39,773 nt of DNA from an uncultured archaeon (GCA_964583985.1 CAZOYD010000029.1:1-39773); one strand, 5' to 3'. Shown: positions 8,669-27,157, counted from the stretch's first letter. Program-made: numbers and translations. The notes: a model not told the origin generated them from the sequence alone.

Positions 8669-8924
8669 GACACTTTAATTTAGGTAATAATGAATTATTA
8701 CAGAATATAATGATTCGATTCCTAAAACAATTATGATTTTATAAAATATATAATTCTACTTAAAGCCTAAGATTAGGACTTAAATAATGAAATCATTCAT
8801 TATCTTTAAAGTAATAAAAGGAATTATTTTGACTGTTTTGTAAGGATTTTTATTTATGAATCCCTTATTGATCCTTAACATTTCTAATCCAAATTTAAAA
8901 AATAGGTTAAAGGGTGAAAATTAC

Positions 8925-9233
8925 ATGGTTAAAATCATGGTGGTGGCTAAGTATCCTCCTCATAAAACAAGTGAAATAATAAAACATTACACGGCTTTAG
9001 GTAAACCATCTTATCCCGATTATTTAAAGAAAGTGGAACATTGGGCTGCACAGGTTACTGGTGATAAATATAAAACTTACGCAGTATATGAATGTCCTGA
9101 TGACAAGATTGTTGGGGGTATGACTGCTCTTTCTAAAAGATTTAATTATTATGCTTTGATAAAAGGATATACATATAAAATTGAGTTTCTAATGGAAGCT
9201 GATGAAGCGATAAAGATAATGTCAGCAAAATAA
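8925..9233 (+). CDS. Small hypothetical protein (probable ferredoxin-like fold); likely start 8925
   Basis: ORF track gives 8856..9233; SD-like GGGTGA lies 7 nt before ATG 8925 (MVKIMVVAKYPP). Confidence 0.55.
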   Translation: MVKIMVVAKYPPHKTSEIIKHYTALGKPSYPDYLKKVEHWAAQVTGDKYKTYAVYECPDDKIVGGMTALSKRFNYYALIKGYTYKIEFLMEADEAIKIMSAK

Positions 9234-9321
9234 AATGAAAATTAATGATATTAAGAATAAAAATTATTTTTTTTTCCTATTTTCATATATGGTAATTATA
9301 TTTGAATAAAAATAGTAAATT

Positions 9322-12189
9322 TCAAGTTATCACTTCTAAATGAGTTGATACTTCACTATTGTTTATCTTAAATGTCCACATATCTCTGTTGTCATCTAGC
9401 TTATTAAAAATTGCGTCCGCTTGAACGGATTTTTGGATGTAATCTTGATACTTCGAAATCGCTTCTAAAATTTCATCGTCTTCAGCAATAAAGTATAGAT
9501 TTATTCTATTATTCGTCGATAGATTTATTTTCTTCCTATAATTATTAATATTTCGTATCAAGTTTCTAGCTATTCCTTCTAATTTCAGTTCTTTCGTGAT
9601 TTCTGTATCCAATTCTATGGATAATTCGGTCACATCTTCATTTTCAACAATGATTTCTTTCACATTTAATGCATTTGTAATTATCTCCAAAAATTCCTCT
9701 TTTAAACTTACTCCTTTCAGTGTTATCTTTTTTAATACTTGTCGCAATGGCATCTTGGCGTTTTCTCTTAATTCCAAAGATTTTTGAACAATTTCCTGTG
9801 TTAAATTCATTTTATCACGTAAGTTTGGATAGAAAAGATTTTGATCGACGCCTGGCCATAGATCCAAATGTACCGATTCGTATTTTGCGAGATTTTTTTC
9901 CCTTAATTTCTGATAAATCATTTCAGAAATGAAGGGGGTAAATGGAGCCAAAATTTTTGATAAATTATGAAGTACGTACGTCAAAGTATTCATAGCGCCT
10001 AATTTTTCTTTTAATTGATCGCTTTTAAATCTATTTCTGCTATTTTTGATGTACCACGTTGATAAATCTTCAACAAAATTAATAATTAATTTGCTTGCCT
10101 CTGCCGTCTCATAATCATCTAATTGGTGAGTCACTTCTAATGCAAGATTATTTACTAAATCTACAATCCATTTATCTAAAACATTTTCCGGTTTGGGTTT
10201 TTCTATAGATACACTGTTGATTTCAAACAAGGAATAGAAATTAAGAACATTTAATAATAACAAATTAAATCTCCGATAAAGTTGTTTAACTATTTCTTCT
10301 TTAAAGTTTAAATCCTTTGCTCGCATTAATTGAGATGCTAATAAATACATCCTTAAGGCATCAGCGCCATAAGATTCTATTATCAAAGATGGATCGGGGT
10401 AATTTTTTTTTGATTTTGACATTTTGGTACCATCTTCGGCAAGGATATTCCCATTTACTACTATATTTTTAAACGGAATTTCATCAAATATAAGAATAGA
10501 GATTACGTGCATGTAGTAAAACCAAGCTCTTACTTGTCCGATATATTCAGAAACAAAATCACTAGGAAAATTGTGTTTAAACCAATCCACATTCTCAAAA
10601 GGATAATGCTTTGCAGCATATGGCATTGAACCTGATTCGAGCCAACAGTCAAACACTTCAGGTATTCGATTCATTACATTTCCACATTCAGAGCACTTTA
10701 AATGTATATCATCTACGATGTGTCTATGCAGGTCTAAATTATCAGGAACTGCTTCGATAGCGAATTCTTGGAGTTCTTTCACAGAACCTATCACTTTAAT
10801 TGCATGACATTGCTCGCATTCCCATATTGGCATGGCAGTAGCCCAAAATCGATTTCTCGAAATACACCAATCAGGAGCATTTTCTAATATGTATTGATAC
10901 CTTTTGGAAATATCTTTAGGATACCAATTGATTTTTTCATTTGTTTTAAGAAGCTTCGATTTTATTTTTTGAATGTTTATGAACCAAGCATCAAGAGCGT
11001 TATATATCAAAGGTGTATCGCATCTATAACAAAATGGATAAGAATGCTTGTAGTCCTCTGTCAAATATGAAAGATTTCTACTATTCAAGTCTTTTAAGAC
11101 TTCTTTATCAACATTCTTAAACCATAATCCCCTCCATTCTTCTGGACCATCAGCTAGTTTTCCGTGTTCATCAATATGTTGAATTATTGGCATATCATAC
11201 TTGTTAATCATTTCATAATCAAATTCTCCATAAATTGCCATATGTACTATTCCCGTGCCTTCATCTGACAAGACTTCTTCACCTCCATCGATGACAAAAT
11301 GACCTAATTTTTCAGTCTCGGCAGAAACTTGGTATAATGGTTCGTATTGTCTATTTATTAATTCGGTTCCTTTAAATTCATCCACAATTTCATAATTCTC
11401 ACTTATTATATCTAATCGAGTTTTACTCAAAATCAAAAATTCTTTTCCTACCTTGATTTTTACATAGTCAAGTTTGCCATTTACTGCCAAAGCGACATTT
11501 CCAATTAACGTCCATGGTGTTGTGCTCCAAGCAAGCAAAAATGTATCTGAAGTACCCTTTAATTTGAATTTCACTATTACTGATTCCTCAATAACGTCTT
11601 TATAGCTATTATCCATGGAAATTTCAGAATTTGAGAGGGGTGTTTCACATCTTGGACAATATAGAAGAATCTTTTTACCTTTATACACGTGACCTTCATC
11701 ATATATCTTCTTAAATATGAACCAAATAGTTTCCATGTACGAATTATCCATTGTTTTATAAGCATTATCAAATTCAATCCATTTCCCCATCCGTTCGACC
11801 GTGTTTTTCCATTCATTCGTATACCAAAGAACTTTCGATCTGCAGAATTCGTTGAATTCACATAAACCCATTTCATATATTTCGTTCTTTTGTTTTAAAT
11901 TTAAAGCTTGTTCGCAAATACTCTCAATAGGAAGTCCATGACAATCCCAACCCCATCTTCTTTCGCAGCGATGATTTTTCATCGTCCAGTACCTTGGAAA
12001 TACGTCTTTTGTGACAAAACTTAAAATATGTCCGTAATGGGGTAAGCCCGTGGCAAATGGAGGTCCATCGTAAAATACATATGGATTAGTGCTTGGTCTA
12101 GATTCAACACTTTTTTCAAAAATTTTATTTTCTTTCCAAAACTGGATTATTTCTTCTTCTTTTTTAACATATGACATGTAATCTACCAT
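9322..12189 (-). CDS. ileS: Isoleucine--tRNA ligase, type 2 (eukaryote/IleRS2-like)
   Basis: DGPPFATGLPHYGH (HIGH), GWDCHGLPIE, WSTTPWT, DWCISRNRFW, KMSKS, YGADALR. Confidence 0.96.
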   Translation of the reverse strand: MVDYMSYVKKEEEIIQFWKENKIFEKSVESRPSTNPYVFYDGPPFATGLPHYGHILSFVTKDVFPRYWTMKNHRCERRWGWDCHGLPIESICEQALNLKQKNEIYEMGLCEFNEFCRSKVLWYTNEWKNTVERMGKWIEFDNAYKTMDNSYMETIWFIFKKIYDEGHVYKGKKILLYCPRCETPLSNSEISMDNSYKDVIEESVIVKFKLKGTSDTFLLAWSTTPWTLIGNVALAVNGKLDYVKIKVGKEFLILSKTRLDIISENYEIVDEFKGTELINRQYEPLYQVSAETEKLGHFVIDGGEEVLSDEGTGIVHMAIYGEFDYEMINKYDMPIIQHIDEHGKLADGPEEWRGLWFKNVDKEVLKDLNSRNLSYLTEDYKHSYPFCYRCDTPLIYNALDAWFINIQKIKSKLLKTNEKINWYPKDISKRYQYILENAPDWCISRNRFWATAMPIWECEQCHAIKVIGSVKELQEFAIEAVPDNLDLHRHIVDDIHLKCSECGNVMNRIPEVFDCWLESGSMPYAAKHYPFENVDWFKHNFPSDFVSEYIGQVRAWFYYMHVISILIFDEIPFKNIVVNGNILAEDGTKMSKSKKNYPDPSLIIESYGADALRMYLLASQLMRAKDLNFKEEIVKQLYRRFNLLLLNVLNFYSLFEINSVSIEKPKPENVLDKWIVDLVNNLALEVTHQLDDYETAEASKLIINFVEDLSTWYIKNSRNRFKSDQLKEKLGAMNTLTYVLHNLSKILAPFTPFISEMIYQKLREKNLAKYESVHLDLWPGVDQNLFYPNLRDKMNLTQEIVQKSLELRENAKMPLRQVLKKITLKGVSLKEEFLEIITNALNVKEIIVENEDVTELSIELDTEITKELKLEGIARNLIRNINNYRKKINLSTNNRINLYFIAEDDEILEAISKYQDYIQKSVQADAIFNKLDDNRDMWTFKINNSEVSTHLEVIT

Positions 12190-15993: not shown

Positions 15994-17037
15994 TTAAGTT
16001 TCTTTTCTACAATCTTTTAAACTTTTATTAGATTCAGTTAAGTAGGTTTTTATGTCATTATCTAATGGATCCAACTCATATACTCTCTTAAAATAAGTTA
16101 ACCCTTTCTCATAATCCATATATTTATCACAATAGATTTTTCCTAATTTTTTTAAGGAGGTAATATTATCAGCATCAATTTCTAGGGCTTTTTCATAAAA
16201 TTCAATTGCCGATTCGTAATCCTCTAAAGCATAGTAACTAAAGCCAATATTGTCATATAAAACAGGATCATCGTGTTCATATGCAATTGCTTCTTCATAA
16301 GCAGAAATTGATTCTTGATATTGCTCATTGAAAGTATAAGCTAAACCTAAATTATTCCAAGCTTCGACGTACTGGGGATTAATCTTAATTGCTTGTTGAT
16401 ATGATTCAATTGCCAAAATAAAGTTTGATTGCTCATATGCGACATCTCCTAATTCACACCATAATTCAGCATTTTGGGGATCTATTTCTATTGCTTTTTT
16501 ATAGTAAAAAATCGCCTTTTCATAATTTTTATTGTCATAATAGACGAGAGCTAAATTGCTAAATAGCATAAATTCATCAGGATTAATTTTGATTGCTTTT
16601 TCATAACATTCTATTGCTTTTTCATAATTTTCTAAATCTCTATATATGAGAGCTATGTTGTTCCATATGTCTGTATAACTAGGTTCATACTCTAGGGCTT
16701 TCATGTATTTTTCTATCGCTTTTTCAAATTCTCCTTTGTCTTCATAAGCAAAACCCATGTTATAAAAAGCGATTCCATCTTCGGGATCGAGCTCAATCGC
16801 TCGTTGAAAACATTCAATTGCTTTATCATTCTCCCCTTTCATTGAATAAGCAAGCCCAAGATTATTCCAAACTTCTGGAAAATCAGGATTCAATTTTATG
16901 GCTTTATTATATGATTCTAATGCACTATTGATATCATTAGAGTCATAATATGCATCTCCTAAATTGATCCAACCATCTGCGTCATTAGGATCCAACTCGA
17001 CATGCTTTTTAAATCGTTCAATCATCAACAGATCCAA
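15994..17037 (-). CDS. Tetratricopeptide repeat protein (about 9 TPRs)
   Basis: Repeated W.NLG.AY....Y.KAI..Y.KA.E..P units of 34 aa. Confidence 0.93.
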   Translation of the reverse strand: MDLLMIERFKKHVELDPNDADGWINLGDAYYDSNDINSALESYNKAIKLNPDFPEVWNNLGLAYSMKGENDKAIECFQRAIELDPEDGIAFYNMGFAYEDKGEFEKAIEKYMKALEYEPSYTDIWNNIALIYRDLENYEKAIECYEKAIKINPDEFMLFSNLALVYYDNKNYEKAIFYYKKAIEIDPQNAELWCELGDVAYEQSNFILAIESYQQAIKINPQYVEAWNNLGLAYTFNEQYQESISAYEEAIAYEHDDPVLYDNIGFSYYALEDYESAIEFYEKALEIDADNITSLKKLGKIYCDKYMDYEKGLTYFKRVYELDPLDNDIKTYLTESNKSLKDCRKET

Positions 17038-17068: not shown

Positions 17069-18115
17069 CTAGTCAGTGATGATCATTTTATCAAGAGTTT
17101 GATCAATCAACAATACTCGATAAAATTCTGAATCTCGATAGGTCACTTTTTCGAGTTTTCCTTGAACCATCACTTTTTCTCCATTTTTAGCTTGTTCACA
17201 AAAACGCCCTCTATATGAATTAATTTGAGTGATAGCGTTGATCTGATTATTAATGCTTGCGTCACTCTCCAAAACTTTAGAGCATTTGATTTTATATGAA
17301 CAGGGAGTAAAAATGGAATCAATTGAATCTACTATTTCAGCTAAAAGAGATATTCGCCCCATATTTTTATATTGATAATCGTAATAAGTCCCTTCCCAAT
17401 CTTTCGGGCTTTTTATATAACGAATGAAAAAGTCTATGCCTTGAAATTTTCCTTGATGAAGTTTTCGTTGTTCGCTTTTTAGAAAGTCCTGAAATAATAT
17501 ATCTGAACCTCCTACCCGCCATTCGTAGTGTTTCTGATATTCATTTAAATTATATTTTCTGATTTGTTTGTTGTTTTTGAATAGATTTTGTAGCTTTTCT
17601 TGAAATTGTAAGCTTGCTTGAGTTCCATATAAAATAAGATCAATATCAGATTTTTTCGTATTCAAACCGATCATTGGAGAACCAGTTATTCCAATTTGGT
17701 TTTCAGGAATGCTTCCAATCTCAATAAATAATTTACACAAATATTTTGATACTTTTTCAATCTTGGTTAAATTATGTTTAGATTTAATGATGTGATAAAA
17801 ATTTCTTGGAGAATATATCATTTTGATATCTTCATTTTTTACTCCTTGAAGGTTCATGTCCATTTCTTGGGAGAAAAATGAATATTGAGGATATTTCTCA
17901 TTAATAATTGAGTATCTTCGTTGAAGATCATAAATTTTAGTGTATTTAAGCCCATCCTTGACACGATCTCCCTCAATATCAGGAATAAATCTTAAAAAAC
18001 AAATTTTTCGATCATTAGGATGATGCAAACCTTTCACATCAAAAAAAAGATGATGTCTCTTGGTTTCTATATAATCACCTTCAATTCCTATTGGAATCTC
18101 CATAAAAATCTCCAT
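17069..18115 (-). CDS. Archaeal predicted nucleotidyltransferase (Pol-beta superfamily) with C-terminal OB-like domain
   Basis: GITGS..IGL....SDIDLILYG (GS..DxD), EGDYIET..FFDVKG..HP, SYRGRFCEQA..GEKV.V.GKLE. Confidence 0.75.
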   Translation of the reverse strand: MEIFMEIPIGIEGDYIETKRHHLFFDVKGLHHPNDRKICFLRFIPDIEGDRVKDGLKYTKIYDLQRRYSIINEKYPQYSFFSQEMDMNLQGVKNEDIKMIYSPRNFYHIIKSKHNLTKIEKVSKYLCKLFIEIGSIPENQIGITGSPMIGLNTKKSDIDLILYGTQASLQFQEKLQNLFKNNKQIRKYNLNEYQKHYEWRVGGSDILFQDFLKSEQRKLHQGKFQGIDFFIRYIKSPKDWEGTYYDYQYKNMGRISLLAEIVDSIDSIFTPCSYKIKCSKVLESDASINNQINAITQINSYRGRFCEQAKNGEKVMVQGKLEKVTYRDSEFYRVLLIDQTLDKMIITD

Positions 18116-18128
18116 AATTCTTTTTAAT

Positions 18129-19232
18129 TCAATATTTAGAAGGCTTTTTGGATTTTATTTTTGTTTTTGGTATACTCTTTGCCCTCATCAGAGATTTTTC
18201 AAACTCTTTTTTTTCACTCAGAAAGCGAGATTTATCACTTTCAAGTTTTTCTCTTTCCCTTTTTATATCATTCTTTTCATCATGTATTTTAGATTTTTCT
18301 CTGGCTAAGGATCTTTCGGTATCTCTAATTTCAGCCGCAACTTTTGCTCTTTCGTTTTCCAAGCTTTTTATCTCTGAATTTAACCGTTTAATTTTATCTT
18401 CTAGATTATTTACCTTATTCTGGTTGGAATAATATTGATTTTCGTATTTTGGAATCTTATTTTCAAGTTCTTTAATTTTTGAGTCAAAATACGTCTTTTT
18501 TCTTTCTAACGACTTTATTTCTTCTTTAGATTTGTTTTTCTCTTTGTCAAGTGACTCCCGTTTTTTTTGAACATCTCGATTTAAAGATTTTAATTCAGTT
18601 TTTTTGATACGATCTTTTTCTCTTTCTTCGAGTAACTTCTTTTTTTCATCTTTAATCCTGTTTTTTTCATCGGTAATATTTCTATTCAGATCGTTAATTT
18701 CTTTATTAAGATTATCTCTAATTCTTGTTAAATCCTTTATTTCATTCCTCAAATCCATTAATTTATCTTCTAAATCATTGATTGTTCTTTCAATAGCGCT
18801 TTCTCTTCTTTCCATACCAGGAATTTTAGTTTTGATTTGTTGCAAGCGCTCTTCTGCTTTTTCTTTTTCTTTCCTTAAGGCTTGTTTTTCTTGATCAATA
18901 TTATCTTTAATTCTTTCCAAATTTTGTTTGTATTGTTTCCCTTTTTCAATCTCGTTATTGATGTTTTCCAAATCCTTTTTTAGTTTTTCATTTTGTTCAA
19001 TGAGATTTCTAAGCTCGATTTCTTTTTCTTTTCTCTTCTTTTCAATACTTTCAATATTGTCGTCATAATCTTGAAATTTTTTTACAACCTTTTCCCATTC
19101 CTCTTTTTCTCTGTTTAATTTAATTCTCTCTTCTTTTATTTTCCTAAGTAATTTTGGGTCCGACACTACCCCTAGGTCCTCATCCGGAGTTTTTTCTCGA
19201 ATTTGTTGTTTGGGAATAGGTTTTTCATCCAT
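18129..19232 (-). CDS. Long Lys/Glu-rich coiled-coil protein
   Basis: Near-continuous heptad pattern over about 320 aa with no evident globular domain. Confidence 0.8.
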   Translation of the reverse strand: MDEKPIPKQQIREKTPDEDLGVVSDPKLLRKIKEERIKLNREKEEWEKVVKKFQDYDDNIESIEKKRKEKEIELRNLIEQNEKLKKDLENINNEIEKGKQYKQNLERIKDNIDQEKQALRKEKEKAEERLQQIKTKIPGMERRESAIERTINDLEDKLMDLRNEIKDLTRIRDNLNKEINDLNRNITDEKNRIKDEKKKLLEEREKDRIKKTELKSLNRDVQKKRESLDKEKNKSKEEIKSLERKKTYFDSKIKELENKIPKYENQYYSNQNKVNNLEDKIKRLNSEIKSLENERAKVAAEIRDTERSLAREKSKIHDEKNDIKREREKLESDKSRFLSEKKEFEKSLMRAKSIPKTKIKSKKPSKY

Positions 19233-19362
19233 TTTTCTTGCACAGTTTTAATATATATATTATTGTTATATAAAGACAAATTCTAAAGTGTTTGCTATTT
19301 ATATATTATAAATTCCATTAATTTCTTAAAGTGTAATATTCTAAGAATTTGGTGTTTAAAAA

Positions 19363-19800
19363 ATGGATTTTGATGACGAATTTGACGAGGAATTTGATGA
19401 AGAATTTGATGAGGATTTCGATGAAGATCTAGACGAAGATTTAAAGGATGATTCAGAAAATTTATCTGAGCCTGCTACTAGCTCAATCACGGATGAAGAA
19501 CCTAAATCTAAAGTTCCAAATCAAATTCCAGAAGGAGAAAAAATATCAATCTTTTTTATGTCAACAATAGGTCCTGGAGAGAAAAAACAAAAATTATTGG
19601 TAAATACAGGAAATACTGTAGGAGCAATCAAAGAGACAGTAGCTAATTTATTTGGATTAGATCCAAATGATTTTCATTTATCTACTGGCGGAATCACTCT
19701 GGATGAACCGTCTACACTGAGCGATTATGGTATTAGGGATGGAGATGACATTTTATTGATTCCAGCAAGTACTGCAGGACTATATTTAATAAAATCATAA
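19363..19800 (+). CDS. Ubiquitin-like protein A (pro-form) with long acidic N-terminal repeats; C-terminus IPASTAG|LYLIKS
   Basis: Beta-grasp pattern TVGAIKETVANLFGLDP..FHLSTGGITLDEPSTLSDYGIRDGDDILLIP; paralogue of 21617..21952. Confidence 0.85.
   Translation: MDFDDEFDEEFDEEFDEDFDEDLDEDLKDDSENLSEPATSSITDEEPKSKVPNQIPEGEKISIFFMSTIGPGEKKQKLLVNTGNTVGAIKETVANLFGLDPNDFHLSTGGITLDEPSTLSDYGIRDGDDILLIPASTAGLYLIKS
19369..19440 (+). repeat. In-frame 12-nt tandem repeat (6 copies) encoding (F/L)D(D/E)(E/D)
   Basis: tttgatgacgaa tttgacgaggaa tttgatgaagaa tttgatgaggat ttcgatgaagat ctagacgaagat. Confidence 0.85.
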
Positions 19801-19801
19801 T

Positions 19802-20599
19802 TTATTTTCTTTCTTTTCTTGATGGGATAATAGCTATTTCATCGTCATCATCAATATCATATTGTTTTACTTGAGATTTTTCATCTAATAAGATACCTCC
19901 AGATGATAGTACGAAATCCTCTTGAAGATAATCGAACAATATTCCAATTCTGTCTTTAAGCTCTGCTATGAAATCGGATTTTTCGATAATTATAATTTTT
20001 GTTTTCTGCCCCGGTTCAAGAAGAGATCTAATGTAAACCCTTAGTTTGTGTTCTAATCCAAAAGGAGTTAATGAAGGAGAATATATGATTTGTTCGTCAG
20101 ATTCCTGTTGAGATTTAAGCATGTTATCAATTAAATCTTTTCTTTCAGAAGCTTCAAAATAGAGCATTTCTCTAAGAAAAAAGATCTTATCCATTTTTGA
20201 TAATTTTAAATTATCTATCTTATATAATTCTTCTTTATCAAATTCCGTGAAAATAAACTCATCGATTCTCGAAATTTCTTCATAAGATTCATCAGAATTG
20301 GCGTAGTGATCAATTAAAGGCATCGCTTCAAAATAGTCCTCAATAAGCTCTGGGGGTATATTATCATTTATTTTCTTTTTTAGAGAGTATTTATCTTTTG
20401 TAGAATTAATCTCCGTTACATTGGTATTAGACTGAATAATAGTATATATTGTACTAGATGATAAAACAGATACGCTAGATATTGCTATAATCATAAAAAT
20501 AGAAAAATTTTCAATTTTTAAAAGGAAGAAAAACAAGTATATAAATGCAAAAACAACATAAAAAGCAATAGTCCAATATACTCGAGTATTTTTCTTCAT
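19802..20599 (-). CDS. Membrane-anchored protein (2 N-terminal TM) with a C-terminal Ubl domain lacking a terminal Gly
   Basis: Two hydrophobic helices, then EPGQK..IAELKDRIGILF..FVLSSGGILLDEKSQVKQYDIDDDDEIAIIPSRKERK, homologous to the flanking Ubls. Confidence 0.8.
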   Translation of the reverse strand: MKKNTRVYWTIAFYVVFAFIYLFFFLLKIENFSIFMIIAISSVSVLSSSTIYTIIQSNTNVTEINSTKDKYSLKKKINDNIPPELIEDYFEAMPLIDHYANSDESYEEISRIDEFIFTEFDKEELYKIDNLKLSKMDKIFFLREMLYFEASERKDLIDNMLKSQQESDEQIIYSPSLTPFGLEHKLRVYIRSLLEPGQKTKIIIIEKSDFIAELKDRIGILFDYLQEDFVLSSGGILLDEKSQVKQYDIDDDDEIAIIPSRKERK

Positions 20600-20677
20600 A
20601 TTTTTAAGATAGTATATTTTCTAATTTTCTAATATATAATTCAAAATATAAATTCAATTGGAATAACTGTGAATTTT

Positions 20678-21355
20678 TCATCTTTTTTCACCAAAAATTA
20701 ACTCTTTTAGTTCATAATACTTTTTATGATCCAATTTGAATAGCAGTCTTTTTTTATTGCTTTCAAATTGAACTAATTGTAAATCATGTAAAATTTCTAA
20801 ATATTTTTTAACAGTATTATAATTTTTCTTGAGATTATTTGAGATATCTGATACTTTTAGGGATTCAGTTTGATCTATCATAAATTCAATTATTTTTTGT
20901 ACAATCTCTTGTTTTAAATAAAAATATGACTCATCTAATTCTGGATTTGAATCATAGATGAAAACAATCCTTTGATTTTCAATTTCTCTTGATCGCGTGA
21001 ATTGGAACTTTTCTAAACAGGATAGGTGCCAGAGAGCTTGATTGCTTCCAATGTTAATAGCTCTCATAATTTCATTGATATTTGATGGATTTTTTTTAAT
21101 ATAATTAAAAATTTCATTTCTAATGGGATGCTCAATTATATTATTTTTCATTAATTTAGTTCCAGGAATTAACCGTCGTTTTTTGATAAGATCTTTAATA
21201 GTCTTTTCAATTTTATTTTTATTTAAATAAGGTTTAGCTCTTGTCCTATTATTAATATAAACAACTATGTCTTCAATTGAAAAGAATGGTTTCTTCTTTA
21301 AATAATCTTTAATTAAGCCTAAGATAAGAGGCTCAACCTCTTCTGGAGTGCTCAT
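20678..21355 (-). CDS. Winged-HTH transcriptional regulator (tandem ArsR-like wHTH)
   Basis: RNEIFNYIKKNP.NINEI...WHLSCLEKF and VSDISNNLKKNYNTVKKYLEILHDLQLV. Confidence 0.8.
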   Translation of the reverse strand: MSTPEEVEPLILGLIKDYLKKKPFFSIEDIVVYINNRTRAKPYLNKNKIEKTIKDLIKKRRLIPGTKLMKNNIIEHPIRNEIFNYIKKNPSNINEIMRAINIGSNQALWHLSCLEKFQFTRSREIENQRIVFIYDSNPELDESYFYLKQEIVQKIIEFMIDQTESLKVSDISNNLKKNYNTVKKYLEILHDLQLVQFESNKKRLLFKLDHKKYYELKELIFGEKR

Positions 21356-21616
21356 AAGTATATTTCTGAATAACGTCCAAATTTCTTAATTCGATTGATA
21401 TATCTTCTCTCTAAATGATAATTTTATAGAATATATATTAATAGAATGTCATGGAATTTATAAGTATAATATAAAAGCTTACGAAAGCAATAATTTATGC
21501 TAAATTAACTAATTATGGAAACTTCAAAATCATTCCAATTGGTTTTATAATACCATTTTAGCATGTTATTATTAAGTTTTAAAAACCTTTAAAAAAAAAT
21601 ATATGGAGTGATTTAA

Positions 21617-21952
21617 ATGAGCTTTGATAATAACGATTTTGATGAGGAATTAGAACCAGTTAAGTCTAAAACCCCGTCAAGTAAAGTACCCTCGACAGGA
21701 AAAAAGGTGACTCTATATTTCATGTCTACCATTGGTCCTGGTGAAAAGAAAGAGAAACTTACAGTAAATGACGCTAATCAAATAGGTGATATCAAACAAA
21801 CATTAGGAAATCTATTTGGGCTTAATCCAGATGAATTCCATCTCTCTTCAGGTGGAAGAACAATGGATGAAAGTAATCAATTAAAAGATTATAATGTAAG
21901 TGATGGCGACGATATTCTATTAATCCCTGCGAGTACAGCGGGATACTTTTAA
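21617..21952 (+). CDS. Ubiquitin-like protein B (pro-form); C-terminus IPASTAG|YF
   Basis: Ubl core IGDIKQTLGNLFGLNP..FHLSSGGRTMDESNQLKDYNVSDGDDILLIP; SD GGAGTGA; first gene of the E1-E2-JAMM-RING run. Confidence 0.88.
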   Translation: MSFDNNDFDEELEPVKSKTPSSKVPSTGKKVTLYFMSTIGPGEKKEKLTVNDANQIGDIKQTLGNLFGLNPDEFHLSSGGRTMDESNQLKDYNVSDGDDILLIPASTAGYF

Positions 21953-21983
21953 ATAATTCTTTTCATACAATATTATATATGGT

Positions 21984-22019
21984 AAGGGCTTTAAGCCCTT
22001 CAATTTTTTTTATTTTTTT
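21984..22019 (+). terminator. Hairpin plus U-tract between Ubl B and E1
   Basis: AAGGGCT-TTA-AGCCCTT perfect stem followed by CAATTTTTTTTATTTTTTT. Confidence 0.6.
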
Positions 22020-22030
22020 GATTAAAATTA

Positions 22031-23266
22031 ATGGTGATATTAGTGAAAAAAGAATCAGATTTTTTTGCAAAAGGAATGTCGGCAGAAGAAAGAGATTTAT
22101 ATGATCGTCAATTTCGCCTTGAAGGATGGTCTCAAAAATTAATTAAAAACTCTAGAGTACTAATTGCTGGAGTAGGAGGATTAGGGTGTGAAATTGCTAA
22201 GAACTTAGCCATGTTAGGTGTTGGTCATATAGATCTTGTTGATTTAGATATAATCGAACATTCGAACTTTAACCGACAGCTTCTTTTTATTGGGGCAAAA
22301 TTAGGAGAACCTAAAGCTATCGCAGCCGCCAAAAAATTACTTGAAATTAATCCTAACATCACCGTAAAAGGATATCATACATCCTTAGAAAGATTAAATC
22401 CCTCCCTATATCATGAAGCAGATGTCATTATTGGGGGTCTTGATTCAATGAATGCGCGATTAAACTTGAACACTCAATGTGTACGATTTAGAAAACCTTT
22501 AGTAGATGGAGGGGTATCTGGTTATCATGGTCATATTTATACCATCTTTCCTTATCGAAATGCTTGCTATGAATGTAATCCACTACCGGTATTAGAGAAT
22601 GATGAAATGGCAGCTTGTACTGTAGTTGGGATCCCTCGAAAAAGGATTCATTGCTTATTTAAAGGAGATATGGCTTTTAAAGAGAAATTTGATAGGGATC
22701 CTAGTCCCAAAGATATAAATGATATAAAATATATTCAGAAAGTCACAAATGAATTAGTAAATCAACATAATTTCCATCCCGAATTTACTGAAGATGATAT
22801 CGTAAAAATTATTGATCGTCATGATCCTGGTATCATTACAATTAATTCAGTTATTTCTGCATTAGAATCTCATGAGGCAGTGAAGATAATTCACTGGAAT
22901 AATGGACATAAAGGATTAGGAGAACCTATTACAAATTATGTTATTTTTAATGCAATGACAATGAAATTTTATCATATTGAAAAGAGGAGAAATCCAGATT
23001 GTGCTCAATGTGGAAAAAATGTAAGGAGAGTTGTAATAAATATAAGGCCTAGCTCCCCTTGTGCAAATATAATAAAAACATTAGAGAAAAATGGATTTCA
23101 ACTAGATCCTGAGCTAGAACCTTTGATAACCTTACTAGATTTCAATGATATCATAATAGTAGATCTAGAAGAGAGTGTTAAAGAAAATAATCTTAGAAAT
23201 TATGAATTTTTAACGATTGCGGGATTTAAAGGGGGCGAAGTTTATGTTACCCTCAAATTAAAATAA
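22031..23266 (+). CDS. E1 ubiquitin-like activating enzyme (ThiF domain plus catalytic-Cys domain, UBA3/UBA2-like); start may be GTG 22043
   Basis: YDRQ, GVGGLGCE, DLDIIEHSNFNRQLLF, LDSMNAR, PLVDGG, CYEC, AACTVVGIPR..IHC (catalytic Cys), CAQC, and a C-terminal probable ubiquitin-fold domain. Confidence 0.92.
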   Translation: MVILVKKESDFFAKGMSAEERDLYDRQFRLEGWSQKLIKNSRVLIAGVGGLGCEIAKNLAMLGVGHIDLVDLDIIEHSNFNRQLLFIGAKLGEPKAIAAAKKLLEINPNITVKGYHTSLERLNPSLYHEADVIIGGLDSMNARLNLNTQCVRFRKPLVDGGVSGYHGHIYTIFPYRNACYECNPLPVLENDEMAACTVVGIPRKRIHCLFKGDMAFKEKFDRDPSPKDINDIKYIQKVTNELVNQHNFHPEFTEDDIVKIIDRHDPGIITINSVISALESHEAVKIIHWNNGHKGLGEPITNYVIFNAMTMKFYHIEKRRNPDCAQCGKNVRRVVINIRPSSPCANIIKTLEKNGFQLDPELEPLITLLDFNDIIIVDLEESVKENNLRNYEFLTIAGFKGGEVYVTLKLK

Positions 23267-23324
23267 AAAATTATAATAAAAATTAAAAAATATAAAAATT
23301 AAAATAAAATACGGGGTTAAAAAA

Positions 23325-23852
23325 ATGAGTATAAGAAGTAGTCGGGTTTCCCGAGATTTCGCGGGTTTAAAAAAAATGGCACAAAATGGAACTATTGTTC
23401 AATTAAAACCTTTTAATCCAAAAAATAAGAGTATTGATCACTTAGCGATTACAATAAAAGGGCCGAAAGGGACGGCTTATGCAGGAGGTTTATTTAAGTT
23501 GGAAATGAAATTTCCTGCGCAATATCCTGGACAACCACCTTTTGTAAGATTGCATACACCGATATGGCACCCTAATTTTTGGCCAAAACCGAGTGAATAC
23601 AAGGGACAAAGAAATATTTGTTTAGCTTTAGTTGATCCTTCATTAGTTGGCAAAAAAGGAGGATGGAGTCCTTCAAAAACAGCTGTAACCATTGTACAAG
23701 CAATTATTGCCATGTTAAATACTCGAGGAAAATATGTTAATCCGACTGATGTTTTTAATAAAAAAGCAGCAATAGAAATGATGAAAAATCAAAAATTATT
23801 TGAGAAAAAAGTTAAAACTTTGGTAAAGAAATACGCTAACGAAAAGTGGTGA
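23325..23852 (+). CDS. E2 ubiquitin-conjugating enzyme (UBC fold)
   Basis: IKGPKGTAYAGGLFKLEMKFPAQYP..PP, IWHPNF...NICL, WSP. Confidence 0.93.
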   Translation: MSIRSSRVSRDFAGLKKMAQNGTIVQLKPFNPKNKSIDHLAITIKGPKGTAYAGGLFKLEMKFPAQYPGQPPFVRLHTPIWHPNFWPKPSEYKGQRNICLALVDPSLVGKKGGWSPSKTAVTIVQAIIAMLNTRGKYVNPTDVFNKKAAIEMMKNQKLFEKKVKTLVKKYANEKW

Positions 23853-23859
23853 GTCTAAG

Positions 23860-24657
23860 ATGAAGATTGATGACAAAAACAGTGAAACAATTCGGGATAC
23901 GATTAAACAAAAAATAAAGGAAAAAATCAAGAAAGAAATACTTGAAGAAGTATATACCGAGCTACAACTCGAAGAATTACAAGAAGAAATAACTGCTGAA
24001 ATTTTTGATGCAAAACCTTTAGGGCATTCAAAAGATATAAAAACATACTTAGAACCTATTCCAATGGAACCTGTAATAACTATAGCTAAAAATGAAAGAA
24101 TTGAAGCAAAAATACAAATAACTGTAAAAGCTATCCTTAAAATTTCAAGCCATTCGTTGAAATATGCGAATTCTAAAATTAGGAAAGAGAACTGGGTTGA
24201 GGTAATAGGATTACTCTCTGGTAGATATGACAATGGAATACTTTATTTAGAAGATGCGTATCCAATGGGTCATGGTACTGCAGTTTATGCTGAAATTAAA
24301 GATTATAATAACTTTACAAGAGCATATGAAGACATTGTAAAAAATAAGCAATTTATCTGTGGATGGTATCATTCGCATCCCTCATATGGATGTTTCATGT
24401 CTAAAGAAGACTTAGGAACTCAAAGGCGATATCAGAAATTTTGGGATAAATCAGTTGCCCTTGTAATTGATCCATATCAAATTAACGGAAAATCTATCGG
24501 CTTTGAGATCTATCGTGCAAATTTTAATACAAAAAAATGGTTTTCCGTGCCATTTGATATCAAAGGAAGTTTAGATGTAAGGATGCTACCCGAAATATTA
24601 GAATTCATGAATCCTATTATTGAAGGTAAACCTGCCTACTTAGAATATGATGAGTGA
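23860..24657 (+). CDS. JAB1/MPN (JAMM) metalloprotease, CSN5/Rpn11-like
   Basis: EVIGLLSG, GWYHSHPSYGCFMSKED (HxH-x10-D), TQ..YQ, ALVIDP. Confidence 0.93.
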   Translation: MKIDDKNSETIRDTIKQKIKEKIKKEILEEVYTELQLEELQEEITAEIFDAKPLGHSKDIKTYLEPIPMEPVITIAKNERIEAKIQITVKAILKISSHSLKYANSKIRKENWVEVIGLLSGRYDNGILYLEDAYPMGHGTAVYAEIKDYNNFTRAYEDIVKNKQFICGWYHSHPSYGCFMSKEDLGTQRRYQKFWDKSVALVIDPYQINGKSIGFEIYRANFNTKKWFSVPFDIKGSLDVRMLPEILEFMNPIIEGKPAYLEYDE

Positions 24658-24686
24658 AGAAAAATTTTAATTGGTGAGATTAAACG

Positions 24687-25838
24687 ATGGTAAAAAAAAA
24701 ACAGAAAGCGTTAGTAATTATTCTCATTGTTTTTTCTGTAATAGGTATGATTCATGGTTTAATTTCAGCTTCATTAAATAATTTTTTAACTTGGCTATTA
24801 ATTGGATTGTGGTTAATATTTACAATAAAAATTTATAATAATATCAAACGACACCGTGAGTTTAATTCCCCCCATAATACGGCTTTTTTCGTGATCATTC
24901 CTTTATTAATAGGAGTATTTTATTCTATCTGGGGATCATATACAGGAATTTTAGGCGAAAACTTGATATTAGGTTCTAATTTCTATTTTAGTTTATGGAG
25001 TCTCATATTTGGTTTGCCTTTTGTAATTTATGGTTCACACTCAATCTATCGATGTTTTAAAAAATATAATGTAATCTATTTTGGAACCAAGTCAGTGAAA
25101 GCGAAGGGGTTAGGCTATTTTTTGTCAATTTCAGTTATTATTGCCATCATTTCTTATTGGATTGCTTTTTATAATGTGAGTGAGTTTTATTCACCATTAA
25201 CACCACTCCGTTTTTCATTGGATCTTAACCTTTTGCTCCTACTCATTATTACTATTTTCAACCTAATCATTTTTGGCTTTATAAGTAACCGTTCCAATAT
25301 ACCAGAATTAACACGTGATTATATCGCACAACGTACTAGGCGAATTAATAACTTAACTACCCCATCAACACAAAATAACAGTACTCGTACAAGAACTCAA
25401 ACAATTCAAACACCAACAAGAACAACCAGAACAACACGCACAACCACCACAAGACCCCGATCTATAAATGCACCTACATCTAGTTCTCGATCAACGAAAA
25501 CGCAAACAACTAAATCAGTTCGATCTCAAAGAACAATAAATGCCCCTAAAATTCGGGATTTTAGCAAATTTAAACCCAAAGGTTCGTTAATCTCAGAAGA
25601 CGACTTCAAGTGTATATTCTGCTTTAAACTACCTAAACTTCCAGAGGATAAAAATAAAGGAATCGTAATCTGTCCAAACTGCAGATATCCTGCTCATGCT
25701 GACGAATTTATAGCTTGGATGAAAACTTCAAATCTTTGTTCTCGTTGCAGTGCTCCCATTCCGTCAGGTTTTAGACGAAATCCTCGGATTATCACTACAA
25801 AAAATTATATTGCTATCTACAGACATTTTCTAAAATAA
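24687..25838 (+). CDS. Polytopic membrane protein (about 6 TM) with Thr/Arg-rich linker and C-terminal RING-like domain; putative membrane E3 ligase
   Basis: Six hydrophobic segments; CIFC...CPNC....HADE...W.....CSRC; last gene of the Ubl-E1-E2-JAMM operon. Confidence 0.8.
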   Translation: MVKKKQKALVIILIVFSVIGMIHGLISASLNNFLTWLLIGLWLIFTIKIYNNIKRHREFNSPHNTAFFVIIPLLIGVFYSIWGSYTGILGENLILGSNFYFSLWSLIFGLPFVIYGSHSIYRCFKKYNVIYFGTKSVKAKGLGYFLSISVIIAIISYWIAFYNVSEFYSPLTPLRFSLDLNLLLLLIITIFNLIIFGFISNRSNIPELTRDYIAQRTRRINNLTTPSTQNNSTRTRTQTIQTPTRTTRTTRTTTTRPRSINAPTSSSRSTKTQTTKSVRSQRTINAPKIRDFSKFKPKGSLISEDDFKCIFCFKLPKLPEDKNKGIVICPNCRYPAHADEFIAWMKTSNLCSRCSAPIPSGFRRNPRIITTKNYIAIYRHFLK

Positions 25839-25978: not shown

Positions 25979-27157
25979 TTATAAGCCCAAAAAACCCTTC
26001 AATAGTCCTTTCGAAAAATCTTTAACAAATCCTTTTGCTGCATCTTTTGATATTGATGTAATAAAACTATCTCTCTGTGTTTTACCTAATCTATAAGTTT
26101 GCCATTGTGGTTCAATTCTTGAGTAATTAGATAAATAGGAAGCCTTAAGAAATTTCTCAATTGCAATATCATCCTTTGAGCGAATTACACATTCGATAGC
26201 TTCAAGTTTCTTTCCTAATGTTAAATTTATAGAAGCTTTTAAACCCCAAGCTAAGCTTAAATCTGGGTCAATTTCGATAGCTTTATTAGCACAGCTCAAA
26301 GCAATATCCACATAGCTCTGGGTTTTATCATATGAATATAGAATAGTATATGCAAACCCTAAAAAACATAACGCATCTTGATGTTTTGGATTAATAATAA
26401 GTACTTTTTCAAAATAATGAATAGCATTTTTACAATTGAAGATGTTAAGTTCAATATCAATAGTTAAATCTATAGGTGACGGCTCTTTTACCTGATTAAT
26501 TGATAAAATACCAAGATAGTAATGAGAATATAGATCATCTTCATTTAGCAAAATGGCTTTTTTCAATTGTACTTCAGCATCTAGAAAGTTCTTCTGAAAA
26601 AAATAAACTCTACCAAGGTAATAACTTACTGATTTATAATCAAGTTGTACTTGGATAACTCTTTTAAACCAAGATTCGGCTTCTATATAACTTTGTTTTT
26701 TGTAATGTAATATACCAAGATAATACCAAGCGTCAATATATCCATTATCCAAACCAAGAACTTGATTAAATTGTAGCTCAGCATCTTCATATCTCTTCAT
26801 TTCTAAGTATGTACGGCCTAGAGCGTGAACTGAACGGATATAATTCACATCAATTTCAAGTGCTTTTTTGTACTGTTGTTCAGCATTAACGTAATTTCTT
26901 TGCACAAAATAAAGATTTGCAAGATTATATCGCGCATATTTATTATTTGGATCTAATTGTAGAGTTTTTATGAAACAGCGCTCTGCATCATTATACTTTT
27001 TTTGTTCTTGGTATGCACGACTGAGATAATATTGTGCATCAACATGATTTTCATCTAATTCTAGCACTTTTTTAAAAATGGTTTCAGCATCAACATAATT
27101 TCGTTCGTCAAGACTTTTCGATCCAAGTTTGTATAATTCATTTACTTGGTTTTCCAT
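25979..27157 (-). CDS. Tetratricopeptide repeat protein
   Basis: Repeated A.Y.LG..Y....Y.DAE..F.K.L.LD units. Confidence 0.9.
   Translation of the reverse strand: MENQVNELYKLGSKSLDERNYVDAETIFKKVLELDENHVDAQYYLSRAYQEQKKYNDAERCFIKTLQLDPNNKYARYNLANLYFVQRNYVNAEQQYKKALEIDVNYIRSVHALGRTYLEMKRYEDAELQFNQVLGLDNGYIDAWYYLGILHYKKQSYIEAESWFKRVIQVQLDYKSVSYYLGRVYFFQKNFLDAEVQLKKAILLNEDDLYSHYYLGILSINQVKEPSPIDLTIDIELNIFNCKNAIHYFEKVLIINPKHQDALCFLGFAYTILYSYDKTQSYVDIALSCANKAIEIDPDLSLAWGLKASINLTLGKKLEAIECVIRSKDDIAIEKFLKASYLSNYSRIEPQWQTYRLGKTQRDSFITSISKDAAKGFVKDFSKGLLKGFLGL

Follow-up and report, generated by a model that had tools for sequence, protein, structure and literature searches.

The ubiquitylation operon of Caldiarchaeum subterraneum groups genes for ubiquitin (Ub), E1-like and E2-like enzymes, a small RING protein, and an Rpn11-like JAMM protease (PMC5654768, PMC6043591). 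In Caldiarchaeum, Rpn11 matures pro-Ub, which E1, E2, and RING conjugate (PMC5654768), and according to the 2017 paper such small RING proteins were the only ones then known in archaea (PMC5654768/PMC6043591). Odin-, Hel-, and Heimdall-type Asgard archaea carry a system linked to ESCRT and UEV (PMC9192718; bioRxiv 10.1101/2023.07.25.550441). This canonical Asgard set comprises an 81-aa soluble RING (locus L056), a Ub whose ...TRTEGG end carries a short tail, a short insertion-free E2, and an E1 of about 312 to 341 aa, with UEV/ESCRT genes adjoining. Among eukaryotes, polytopic RING ligases (Hrd1/gp78, MARCH, and Pex2/10/12) join a multipass membrane domain to a cytosolic RING-H2-like finger, and in the SUMO pathway the E2 recognizes a consensus lysine (psi-K-x-E) while chains form on the modifier's flexible N-terminal arm. 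We present here a locus of a Loki-type Asgard archaeon that holds a complete ubiquitin-like tagging gene set. The operon class is already known; the Ala-Gly tag and the membrane RING were found in no paper within the searchable literature.

The locus occupies positions 18129 to 25838 of the window, the 39,773-nucleotide stretch that was analyzed as a whole. All nine ORFs that the first-pass annotation had placed there were recovered at the same positions: a coiled-coil gene, two free Ubls, a Ubl protein with two transmembrane (TM) helices, a double winged-helix (wHTH) regulator, and a compact Ubl-E1-E2-JAMM-membrane RING operon. The co-oriented operon genes are separated by gaps of 78, 58, 7, and 29 nt. 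Pfam assigned three proteins (19363-19800, 19802-20599, and 21617-21952) to the ubiquitin family above curated cutoffs (E values of 1e-7 to 3e-7), and the ThiF, UQ_con, JAB, and ArsR-type HTH matches given below likewise exceed these cutoffs. Synteny of the five-gene core extends through the genus and the order to at least seven other families in the phylum, which rules out a chance grouping. The proposed Ubl/E1/E2/JAMM/membrane RING/regulator locus stands on ORFs, Pfam domains, and synteny, its RING having no above-threshold Pfam match but support of four kinds. We consider it probable that this is a complete, vertically inherited Asgard ubiquitin-like conjugation system, here called system A, which is paralogous to Caldiarchaeum/ESCRT-linked ubiquitin and acts at the membrane by the steps set out below. 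Its gene content, catalytic motifs, folds, synteny, and paralogy were seen directly.

Ubl B, the first operon gene (21617..21952, plus strand; 111 aa), consists of an acidic arm with a KSKTPSSKVP motif and a ubiquitin-fold domain that closes with ...LLIPASTAG before a final YF (Pfam ubiquitin, 2.2e-7). The free paralogue A (19363..19800, plus strand; 145 aa) has a long acidic arm of FDEE repeats, a KSKVP motif, and a ubiquitin-fold domain ending ...IPASTAG with the tail LYLIKS (2.9e-7); it shares 59% identity with Ubl B across 100 residues, and a second free Ubl is likewise present at L029, L030, L042, L043, L046, L049, and L052. The AF2 model of Ubl B (pLDDT 91) is closest in structure to Caldiarchaeum ubiquitin (6fno_D, 5.8e-8) and then to ubiquitin. 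Pfam ubiquitin was matched in 20 of 20 members of the Ubl family, whose profile matches ubiquitin and Caldiarchaeum Ub. Pfam Ufm1 was matched in none of these 20, UFM1 was absent from the best 60 profile matches and the top 50 fold matches, and PF03671 had no match above noise in the host genome; a Ufm1-family modifier was thus rejected, the Ubl being of ubiquitin type by profile, Pfam, and fold.

The C terminus ...LLIPxS(T/R)AG is conserved phylum-wide, and every free operon Ubl examined ends in Ala-Gly rather than di-glycine, as distinct from the ...TRTVGG of Caldiarchaeum. In most operon orthologues examined the stop codon immediately follows the Gly; in the others the tail is at most 6 aa long, the host genome having 2 residues after ...STAG in Ubl B and 6 in paralogue A. 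Some members of system A share with Caldiarchaeum a pro-form with a C-terminal tail. The single-Gly (AG) modifier and the acidic N-terminal extensions that had been proposed were both supported, the motif being conserved across the phylum with Gly often the last codon, and the arms being conserved too. The acidic arm, with its K-T-P motif, is a further difference from the Caldiarchaeum modifier, with which the ubiquitin fold is shared.

E1-A (22031..23266, plus strand; 411 aa) matches ThiF at 1.6e-57. It contains GxGxxG as well as CxxC zinc pairs, and its catalytic-Cys segment is of the CT..PR..HC type found in eukaryotes, comparable with the aligned UBA3 rows. Its description as UBA3-like proved nonspecific, as the scores against PDB sequences are similar for UBA2 (131 bits), UBA3 (127 bits), and UBA1 (122 bits), and no gene for a partner subunit (APPBP1 type) was found at the locus. 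Elsewhere the host genome has further ThiF genes. The UBA3 match spans residues 35 to 352, with the last ~60 residues beyond it; for Loki E1s, C-terminal ubiquitin-fold domains for E2 recruitment have been reported (PMC5654768). E2-A (23325..23852, plus strand; 175 aa) matches UQ_con at 3e-26 and has a UBC fold, HPN, and a catalytic Cys (NICL), both of which align across all E2 clades. What sets it apart from the Caldiarchaeum E2 is a pair of clade-specific insertions flanking the catalytic Cys, HPNFWPKPSEYKGQRNIC and a loop that follows this Cys, and it is no nearer to Ubc9 than to other E2s. The third enzyme (23860..24657, plus strand; 265 aa) is an Rpn11/CSN5-type JAMM metalloprotease (JAB, 8.8e-14) with an intact HxH-x7-S-x2-D motif (HSH here) and a charged N-terminal extension of ~80 aa. 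Its nearest solved relative is the ubiquitin-processing enzyme CsRpn11 of Caldiarchaeum (6fjv, 9e-16), followed by Rpn11 and CSN5, and it is presumed to be a deconjugase, and also a maturase where the Ubl has a tail.

The enzymes place system A beside, and not within, the canonical Asgard system, with which it shares phylum and enzyme classes. In trees of 20 to 24 rows, drawn from a quick search and excluding eukaryotic and Caldiarchaeum E1/E2 sequences, A, B, and C are separate clades for E2 (99/98/99) and E1 (99/99/100). The E1 and E2 of system A (SH-aLRT of 99 for each) stand apart both from a third, paralogous B system and from the canonical GG-ubiquitin system linked to ESCRT/UEV. With the Caldiarchaeum enzymes themselves outside the tree, system A can be said to lie in another clade than the ...TRTEGG-type systems. 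By tblastn, E2-A shares 54 to 72% identity with orthologues in other families versus about 36 to 41% with the in-genus paralogue E2-B. The first-pass annotation had argued for a different modifier pathway and had named a lack of synteny in relatives, or components inside the canonical ubiquitin clade, as grounds against it; the synteny and, for E1 and E2, the trees bear the pathway out. The core itself is not special to this locus; it is an old and widespread Asgard operon, for which a family-level addition could be shown in the TM-Ubl alone. A second ubiquitin-type tagging branch, probably membrane based and distinct from the characterized archaeal system, likely predates eukaryotes.

The strongest alternative, plausible though we consider it unlikely, is that system A is simply the general ubiquitin system of its lineage, sending soluble proteins to the proteasome, for instance, with Ala-Gly a neutral variant of Gly-Gly and the membrane RING one E3 having no special membrane role. 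The host genome encodes no UQ_con (UBC E2) protein other than E2-A, and 100 genomes of the order yielded no canonical-type E2; the earlier view that the pathway is orthogonal to canonical Asgard ubiquitin therefore fails for the host. Published surveys, moreover, take the Loki "Ub region" to be the ubiquitin system (PMC9192718), and for Ubl fold and JAMM alike the nearest match is the Caldiarchaeum ubiquitin/Rpn11 pair. Against this, strong conservation holds for the Ala-Gly end, the acidic arm, and the K-T-P motif, and the operon offers no E3 candidate besides the membrane RING, which is coinherited with it across the phylum. At least one genome, G280, from another class than the host's, the only class where the two were seen together, carries system A alongside a canonical GG-ubiquitin system, and this speaks for a role of its own.

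The fifth operon gene (24687..25838, plus strand) encodes a 383-aa membrane protein with about six TM helices (five clear hydropathy segments and one weaker), a Thr/Arg/Ser-rich tether of ~80 aa, and a C-terminal finger of the pattern C-x2-C-x16-C-x2-C-x4-H-x2-E-x3-W-x6-C-x2-C. The protein has 378 homologues, each unannotated and devoid of Pfam domains. The finger has seven invariant Cys/His residues, invariant Glu and Trp, and RING-H2-like spacing, the Glu at position 6 aligning with a His of the canonical RING. Its AF2 model is moderately confident (pLDDT 76), and its top 50 structural matches are all RING or RING-like/U-box by both Foldseek (probability, 0.85 to 1.0; best E value, 5e-3) and VIA-align (Z up to 7.9), among them the HRD1 RING (6f98, 6a3z). 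The protein is presumed to be the E3 of the system, and the membrane-embedded E3 candidate of the first-pass annotation was upheld. Rather improbably, the Cys-rich end could instead be a generic zinc ribbon or treble clef, with E2 acting either alone or with an unlinked E3. The protein has no RING match above the Pfam threshold, zinc-ribbon families too (DZR in 20 of 22 members, Zn_ribbon_15 in 17 of 22) score weakly, the sixth ligand is Glu, and structural scores are middling. However, RING families match below threshold (Prok-RING_1 in 21 of 22 members, zf-RING_16 in 19 of 22, zf-RING_2 in 8 of 22), two independent aligners agree on RING/U-box, the gene is always fifth in the operon, and hhalign places the finger with the operon-encoded soluble RING of the canonical Asgard system (95.6%, E value of 1e-8), in ligand-for-ligand register and with the Trp conserved. 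Homology to the small-RING family is thus judged on the Asgard srfp of L056 and not on the Caldiarchaeum srfp itself, from whose system this RING differs in its fusion to about six TM helices and in having Glu in place of His.

As the RING-type candidate E3 of system A, the protein shares the architecture of Hrd1/gp78, MARCH, and Pex2/10/12, a likeness of design and not of shown descent. Its full-length profile matched no Hrd1 or other membrane protein among PDB sequences, the TM domain gave no usable Atlas match, and no Derlin, Cdc48, or Hrd3 partner was found at the locus. The TM domain, being unlike anything solved by sequence, could therefore have a function of its own. Analogies drawn earlier to ERAD, UFMylation, and NEDDylation found no specific support, with a Ubl of ubiquitin type, not Ufm1 type, and a TM domain that matches no Hrd1 sequence.

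That system A is instead a Bil/CBASS-like antiviral defense module (Ubl-E1-E2-JAB) and not a housekeeping modifier is very improbable: its gene content resembles that of bacterial Ubl-E1-E2-DUB defense operons (PMC10557695, PMC11601596), and PADLOC models for E1-E2 (Cap2) match the adenylation core of E1 at 57 bits, but that match covers the generic ThiF core only, JAB reaches 18 bits, the Ubl, E2, and RING protein have no PADLOC match, and the locus is single copy, in conserved synteny, and present in most genomes of the family, unlike patchy defense islands.

The coiled-coil gene (18129..19232, minus strand; 367 aa) has only coiled-coil-type Pfam/NCBIfam matches. It adjoins the operon in L029 to L034, L046, and L050 whereas tblastn did not detect it in families f9, f26, f18, and f32. 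Its product carries a K-T-P-type motif near the N terminus (QIREKTP) and a degenerate copy (KKP) at the extreme C terminus (KIKSKKPSKY); the orthologues examined have terminal K(T/V)P-type motifs, with the C-terminal copies in L033 being KAP/KHP. The motif is kept in Ubl arms phylum-wide. Its strict form, which was defined after the motif had been seen, occurs in 4 of 6,462 ORFs genome-wide, 2 of these 4 at the locus. Common to the Ubl arm and both coiled-coil ends, K-T-P may mark a substrate or docking site, making the coiled-coil protein a candidate substrate, scaffold, or docking partner; the T-P could equally be a kinase site. The parallel with SUMO is a lysine motif in the disordered N-terminal arm of the Ubl that recurs in a candidate substrate, together with E2 loops near the active site, whereas the motif here is I-x-x-K-T-P, not psi-K-x-E, and its lysine is a putative acceptor.

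What follows for system A is inferred, from the biochemical steps to the site of action at the membrane and the part played by the motif. The nascent Ubl would carry a flexible acidic arm and, in the host genome, 2 or 6 residues beyond ...STAG, a tail that the Rpn11-type JAMM would trim. E1-A would adenylate the terminal Gly and form a thioester on its catalytic Cys, and the tag would move on to the E2-A Cys. From its TM segments and positive-inside pattern, the six-TM protein is predicted to present its RING-type finger on the cytoplasmic side of the membrane, at the end of a long basic tether; there the finger would recruit charged E2, so that tagging would fall on membrane or membrane-proximal proteins. 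The K-T-P lysines of the tag arm and both coiled-coil ends may be preferred acceptors or a docking site, and as acceptors they would make chains and a built-in substrate possible. The JAMM would later remove the tag from targets, and since many Ubl orthologues end at Gly and need no trimming, deconjugation is probably its conserved role. A more speculative extension, which we regard as doubtful, is a dedicated membrane-localized pathway in which E2-A, by way of its clade-specific active-site loops, and the tethered membrane RING modify the I-x-x-K-T-P lysine on the tag arm (in SUMO-like chains) and on both ends of the coinherited coiled-coil protein, building a polymeric layer that lines the membrane on its inner side and can be reversed. 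Such a pathway would represent an archaeal precursor of the membrane RING ligase systems of eukaryotes, apart from the ESCRT-linked ubiquitin branch.

Two minus-strand genes lie between paralogue A and the operon. The membrane-anchored Ubl protein (19802..20599; 265 aa) has two N-terminal TM helices by hydropathy, and its C-terminal part is a ubiquitin-fold domain (residues 196 to 255 match Pfam ubiquitin at 1.3e-7). Because it ends in SRKERK, with no Gly, it is not conjugatable; present in 52 of 80 genomes of the host family and 0 of 19 in the order's other families, it may be a membrane decoy or adaptor added in the host family. The double-wHTH protein (20678..21355; 225 aa) is of the ArsR/HTH_5 type, matching HTH_5 (2.2e-8) with two stretches as well as other wHTH families. 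Its gene diverges from the operon across an AT-rich spacer of 261 nt, and the protein is presumed to be a regulator, probably controlling the divergent promoters. The gene is syntenic in L029 and L030, with 64 to 67% identity.

The window corresponds to contig C29 of a genome of 3.8 Mb and about 30% GC, which the source names of near-identical proteins assign to the Lokiarchaeota/Promethearchaeota MAGs. The ORF list reproduced exactly, coordinates included, the gene map of the first-pass annotation. A coiled-coil gene (18129-19232, -), the free ubiquitin-like (Ubl) gene Ubl A (19363-19800, +), a Gly-less, membrane-anchored Ubl-domain protein (the 2-TM Ubl protein; 19802-20599, -), and a double-wHTH protein (20678-21355, -) precede a co-oriented run of Ubl B (21617-21952), E1 (22031-23266), E2 (23325-23852), JAMM (23860-24657), and a 383-aa membrane protein (24687-25838). 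The gaps within the run are 78, 58, 7, and 29 nt, in that order. Pfam identified three ubiquitin-family domains, ThiF, UQ_con, JAB, and an ArsR-type HTH, all above curated cutoffs, and NCBIfam gave nothing specific beyond Pfam for the locus proteins. A reading as a defence system was dropped, PADLOC having returned essentially nothing.

Between the wHTH gene and Ubl B, the 261-nt divergent spacer has many imperfect AT-rich inverted repeats, including a 20-nt repeat at 21389-21447 (85% complementary, 19 nt apart). No operator is claimed, since at 27% GC such repeats are not separable from chance without comparison across relatives. The coiled-coil gene adjoins a gene for a 348-aa nucleotidyltransferase-fold protein (17069-18115, -) with weak NTP_transf_2 and poly(A)-polymerase-palm matches, which keeps its position in two genus relatives (loci L029 and L030) and has no evident link to the Ubl system. 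TPR-repeat proteins are encoded on both flanks (15994-17037, - and 25979-27157, -), the upstream one syntenic in the genus relatives; as TPR proteins are common in this genome, these flanks may be meaningless.

The same two relatives share the full nine-gene layout, and the core of Ubl, E1, E2, JAMM, and membrane RING protein recurs in four families of the order (L031 to L034). Across the phylum, a profile of the membrane RING protein matched 130 of 300 sampled genomes, many of these matches being full length, others covering the C-terminal half, and some being weak ones in ORFs of about 190 to 200 aa. Families with matches include f9 (26/28), f26 (19/21), f18, f20, f32, f14, and f6; f11 (0/76) and f16 (0/19) had none. 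Two closed genomes of the sister family, G031 and G037, do not have the complete operon. The whole set was present in 10 of 12 loci fetched from the families with matches, either contiguous or in two adjacent blocks (L044, L045, and L051); of the other two, L048 ends at a contig edge and L046 shows only part of the RING protein. E2 identity in loci from other families was 54 to 72%. The first-pass observation of the locus holds, and its interpretation is supported in part. The operon, designated system A, encodes a real and ancient Ubl-conjugation system that is conserved widely in Asgard archaea and is a paralogue of the characterised one; its mechanism is inferred throughout.

Both free Ubls end in IPASTAG, followed by YF or LYLIKS, and the domain end LLIP(A/V/H/F/S)S(T/R)AG was shared by 21 Ubl sequences, drawn from the order and from seven more families of the phylum. 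A stop codon directly follows the Gly in most orthologues examined, strong comparative evidence for the single Gly as the predicted mature end of the modifier. The same arrangement implies that the conserved job of the JAMM protein would be deconjugation, with maturation needed only where Ubl tails exist. The Ubl domain is, by sequence and predicted fold, ubiquitin-type: Pfam ubiquitin matched 20/20 family members, profile matches were to ubiquitin, ubiquilin, ISG15, and Caldiarchaeum ubiquitin, and the AF2 model (pLDDT 91) was nearest to Caldiarchaeum ubiquitin and then to ubiquitin. The single-Gly end resembles the UFM1 tail (IIPRDRVG). Kinship with Ufm1 was considered on these grounds and because Asgard Ufm1 homologues were recently reported (PMC12962969), and was rejected: Pfam Ufm1 matched no member, UFM1 was absent from the best 60 profile matches and the top 50 fold matches, and PF03671 had no match above noise in the genome. 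In other lineages, the same domain type lies at the C terminus of large operon-adjacent proteins (L046:15072-16814, - and L033:9691-11448, -). One is a HerA/DUF87-like ATPase ending in SSRAG, and the other is a VWA-domain protein ending in ASTAG plus a tail; such a large enzyme could itself be conjugated via its own C terminus.

The E1 had been called UBA3-like. Its catalytic-Cys segment follows the eukaryotic CT..PR..HC type, but the label is not specific, since scores were near-equal for UBA2 (131 bits), UBA3 (127 bits, residues 35 to 352), and UBA1 (122 bits). The E2 showed no preference for any eukaryotic E2 class and is marked out from the other clades by two insertions flanking the catalytic Cys. 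Among solved structures, the JAMM protein was closest to the Caldiarchaeum Rpn11-like ubiquitin maturase, with Rpn11 and CSN5 next.

The 383-aa protein had no Pfam match at threshold, and its 378 database homologues are all unannotated. An alignment of 15 full-length and 22 C-terminal sequences revealed the invariant pattern C309-x2-C312-x16-C329-x2-C332-x4-H337-x2-E340-x3-W344-x6-C351-x2-C354. Every member had subthreshold RING-family matches (Prok-RING_1, 21/22; zf-RING_16, 19/22; zf-RING_2, 8/22). Foldseek searches with an AF2 model of the finger (pLDDT 76) returned only RING/U-box domains and RING-like fingers, the HRD1 RING among them (best E value, 5e-3; TM score, ~0.55), and an independent all-against-all structure aligner found RING/U-box or RING-like folds in 50/50 top chains (Z up to 7.9). 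In a profile-profile comparison, the finger matched the 81-aa soluble RING of a canonical Asgard ubiquitin cluster at 95.6% probability (E value, 1e-8), with Glu340 aligned to the second His of that protein's H-x2-H. From these sequence and model comparisons, we conclude that the finger is a predicted RING that belongs to the small-RING lineage of archaea and has exchanged a His for Glu. The finger takes up roughly residues 296 to 383 and the TM domain residues 1 to 215. Hydropathy indicates five clear transmembrane (TM) segments and one weaker segment, and the basic loops fit a cytoplasmic side for the finger. The membrane-embedded RING is the probable ligase of system A. Homology of the TM domain to Hrd1 found no support: by sequence, the domain matched no solved structure, and it had no usable match in the protein Atlas, so the Hrd1 likeness reduces to architectural analogy. 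Relative G025 carries, after its membrane RING gene, another gene, of 137 aa, with the same finger and no TM domain (L032:7490-7903, - and L032:7900-8916, -).

System A is accompanied in the phylum by paralogous sets. Most relatives have a second E2 (set B), roughly 36 to 46% identical and about 2 kb from an E1 of the 527-aa type. Other classes have a third, canonical set (C), in which the ubiquitin ends in TRTEGG with a short tail, the E2 is short and lacks insertions, and the E1 is about 312 to 341 aa long; L056 shows an 81-aa soluble RING, and both L056 and L060 have UEV-like genes close by. In trees of 24 E2 and 20 E1 sequences, A, B, and C separate into clades with SH-aLRT values of 98 to 100. 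Caldiarchaeum ubiquitin ends in ITRTVGG plus a 9-residue tail, which places the characterised cascade in type C. One genome (G280) combines A and C with another set, Ubl(KGG)-E1-E2-JAB, so systems can coexist. These comparisons point to three or more paralogous E1/E2 sets within the phylum. The third operon type in G280 (L058, G280:C1:1375300-1395299, at ~6770-10810) includes genes for a Ubl ending in QIKGG, an E1 (about 408 aa), an E2 of 183 aa that sits on a long branch, and a JAB protein.

The present genome encodes a single UBC E2, that of the operon. No E2-B, which most genus members have, turned up in the assembly; tblastn with E2-B at E ≤ 10 matched the operon E2 alone, disposing of a hidden second E2. 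The genome does contain a 527-aa E1-B with a large insertion (C61:5985-7568; L007:1192-2775, -) and a separate 87-aa GG-type Ubl ending in TQAGG-F (C3:76589-76780; L002:1486-1749, -). A type-C E2 query against 100 genomes of the order recovered A- and B-type genes alone. Orthogonality to canonical ubiquitin, as first proposed, therefore holds for the phylum, where A and C can coexist, but not for this organism.

Asgard ubiquitin-type tagging is usually treated as one system, the ESCRT-linked forerunner of eukaryotic ubiquitin, and multiple Ubl pathways and membrane-anchored RING ligases are both commonly seen as eukaryotic elaborations. Here, one of at least three sets is widespread, with a tag ending in Ala-Gly and its only ligase candidate in the membrane. 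If this is true, both the branching into several Ubl pathways and membrane-anchored RING ligases would be older than eukaryotes. For Loki-type genomes, which lack the canonical set, it would have to be asked anew which tag is read by the ESCRT-I UEV proteins. PMC5654768 reports reconstitution of the Caldiarchaeum cascade, divides archaeal operons by E2 phylogeny into Clusters I and II, and states that the RING proteins then known in archaea were all small. Lokiarchaeota have a discrete "Ub region" apart from ESCRT genes (PMC9192718), and a Hel-type GG pro-ubiquitin has been used with a soluble RING (bioRxiv 10.1101/2023.07.25.550441). For Asgard archaea, the text of the searchable literature describes no Ala-Gly modifier, K-T-P arm, or polytopic RING; figures or supplements, such as Supplementary Fig. 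1 of PMC5654768, may show the operon without comment.

Among the accessory genes, the 2-TM Ubl protein was found in 52/80 genomes of the family and 0/19 in the rest of the order and is a family-level addition. Within the order, and also in families f20 and f6, the coiled-coil gene is found with the operon. In the Ubl arm, one or two copies of (S/T)KTP follow the acidic stretch, and the coiled-coil protein bears this motif too, no more than about 30 residues from its N terminus and about 10 residues from its C terminus. The arm motif is kept in most operon Ubls across the phylum, and the coiled-coil motif is kept in orthologues examined, the C-terminal copy being degenerate here (KKP) and in L033 (KAP/KHP). 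Genome-wide, the strict form occurs in 4 of 6,462 six-frame ORFs, two within this locus; this count is post hoc, so conservation across lineages is the better evidence. By analogy with SUMO, the lysines of the K-T-P motif may be acceptor sites; alternatively, the motif may be a putative docking site or a putative proline-directed phosphosite. System A is small and self-contained and has a candidate built-in substrate, features that favour reconstitution in vitro. Outside the locus, only two ORFs have a strict K-T-P-type motif; one of them (C56:18939-19448, -) encodes a 169-aa protein with RVRSKTPW near its N terminus and a hydrophobic segment at the C-terminal end, and this protein may be another target or partner.
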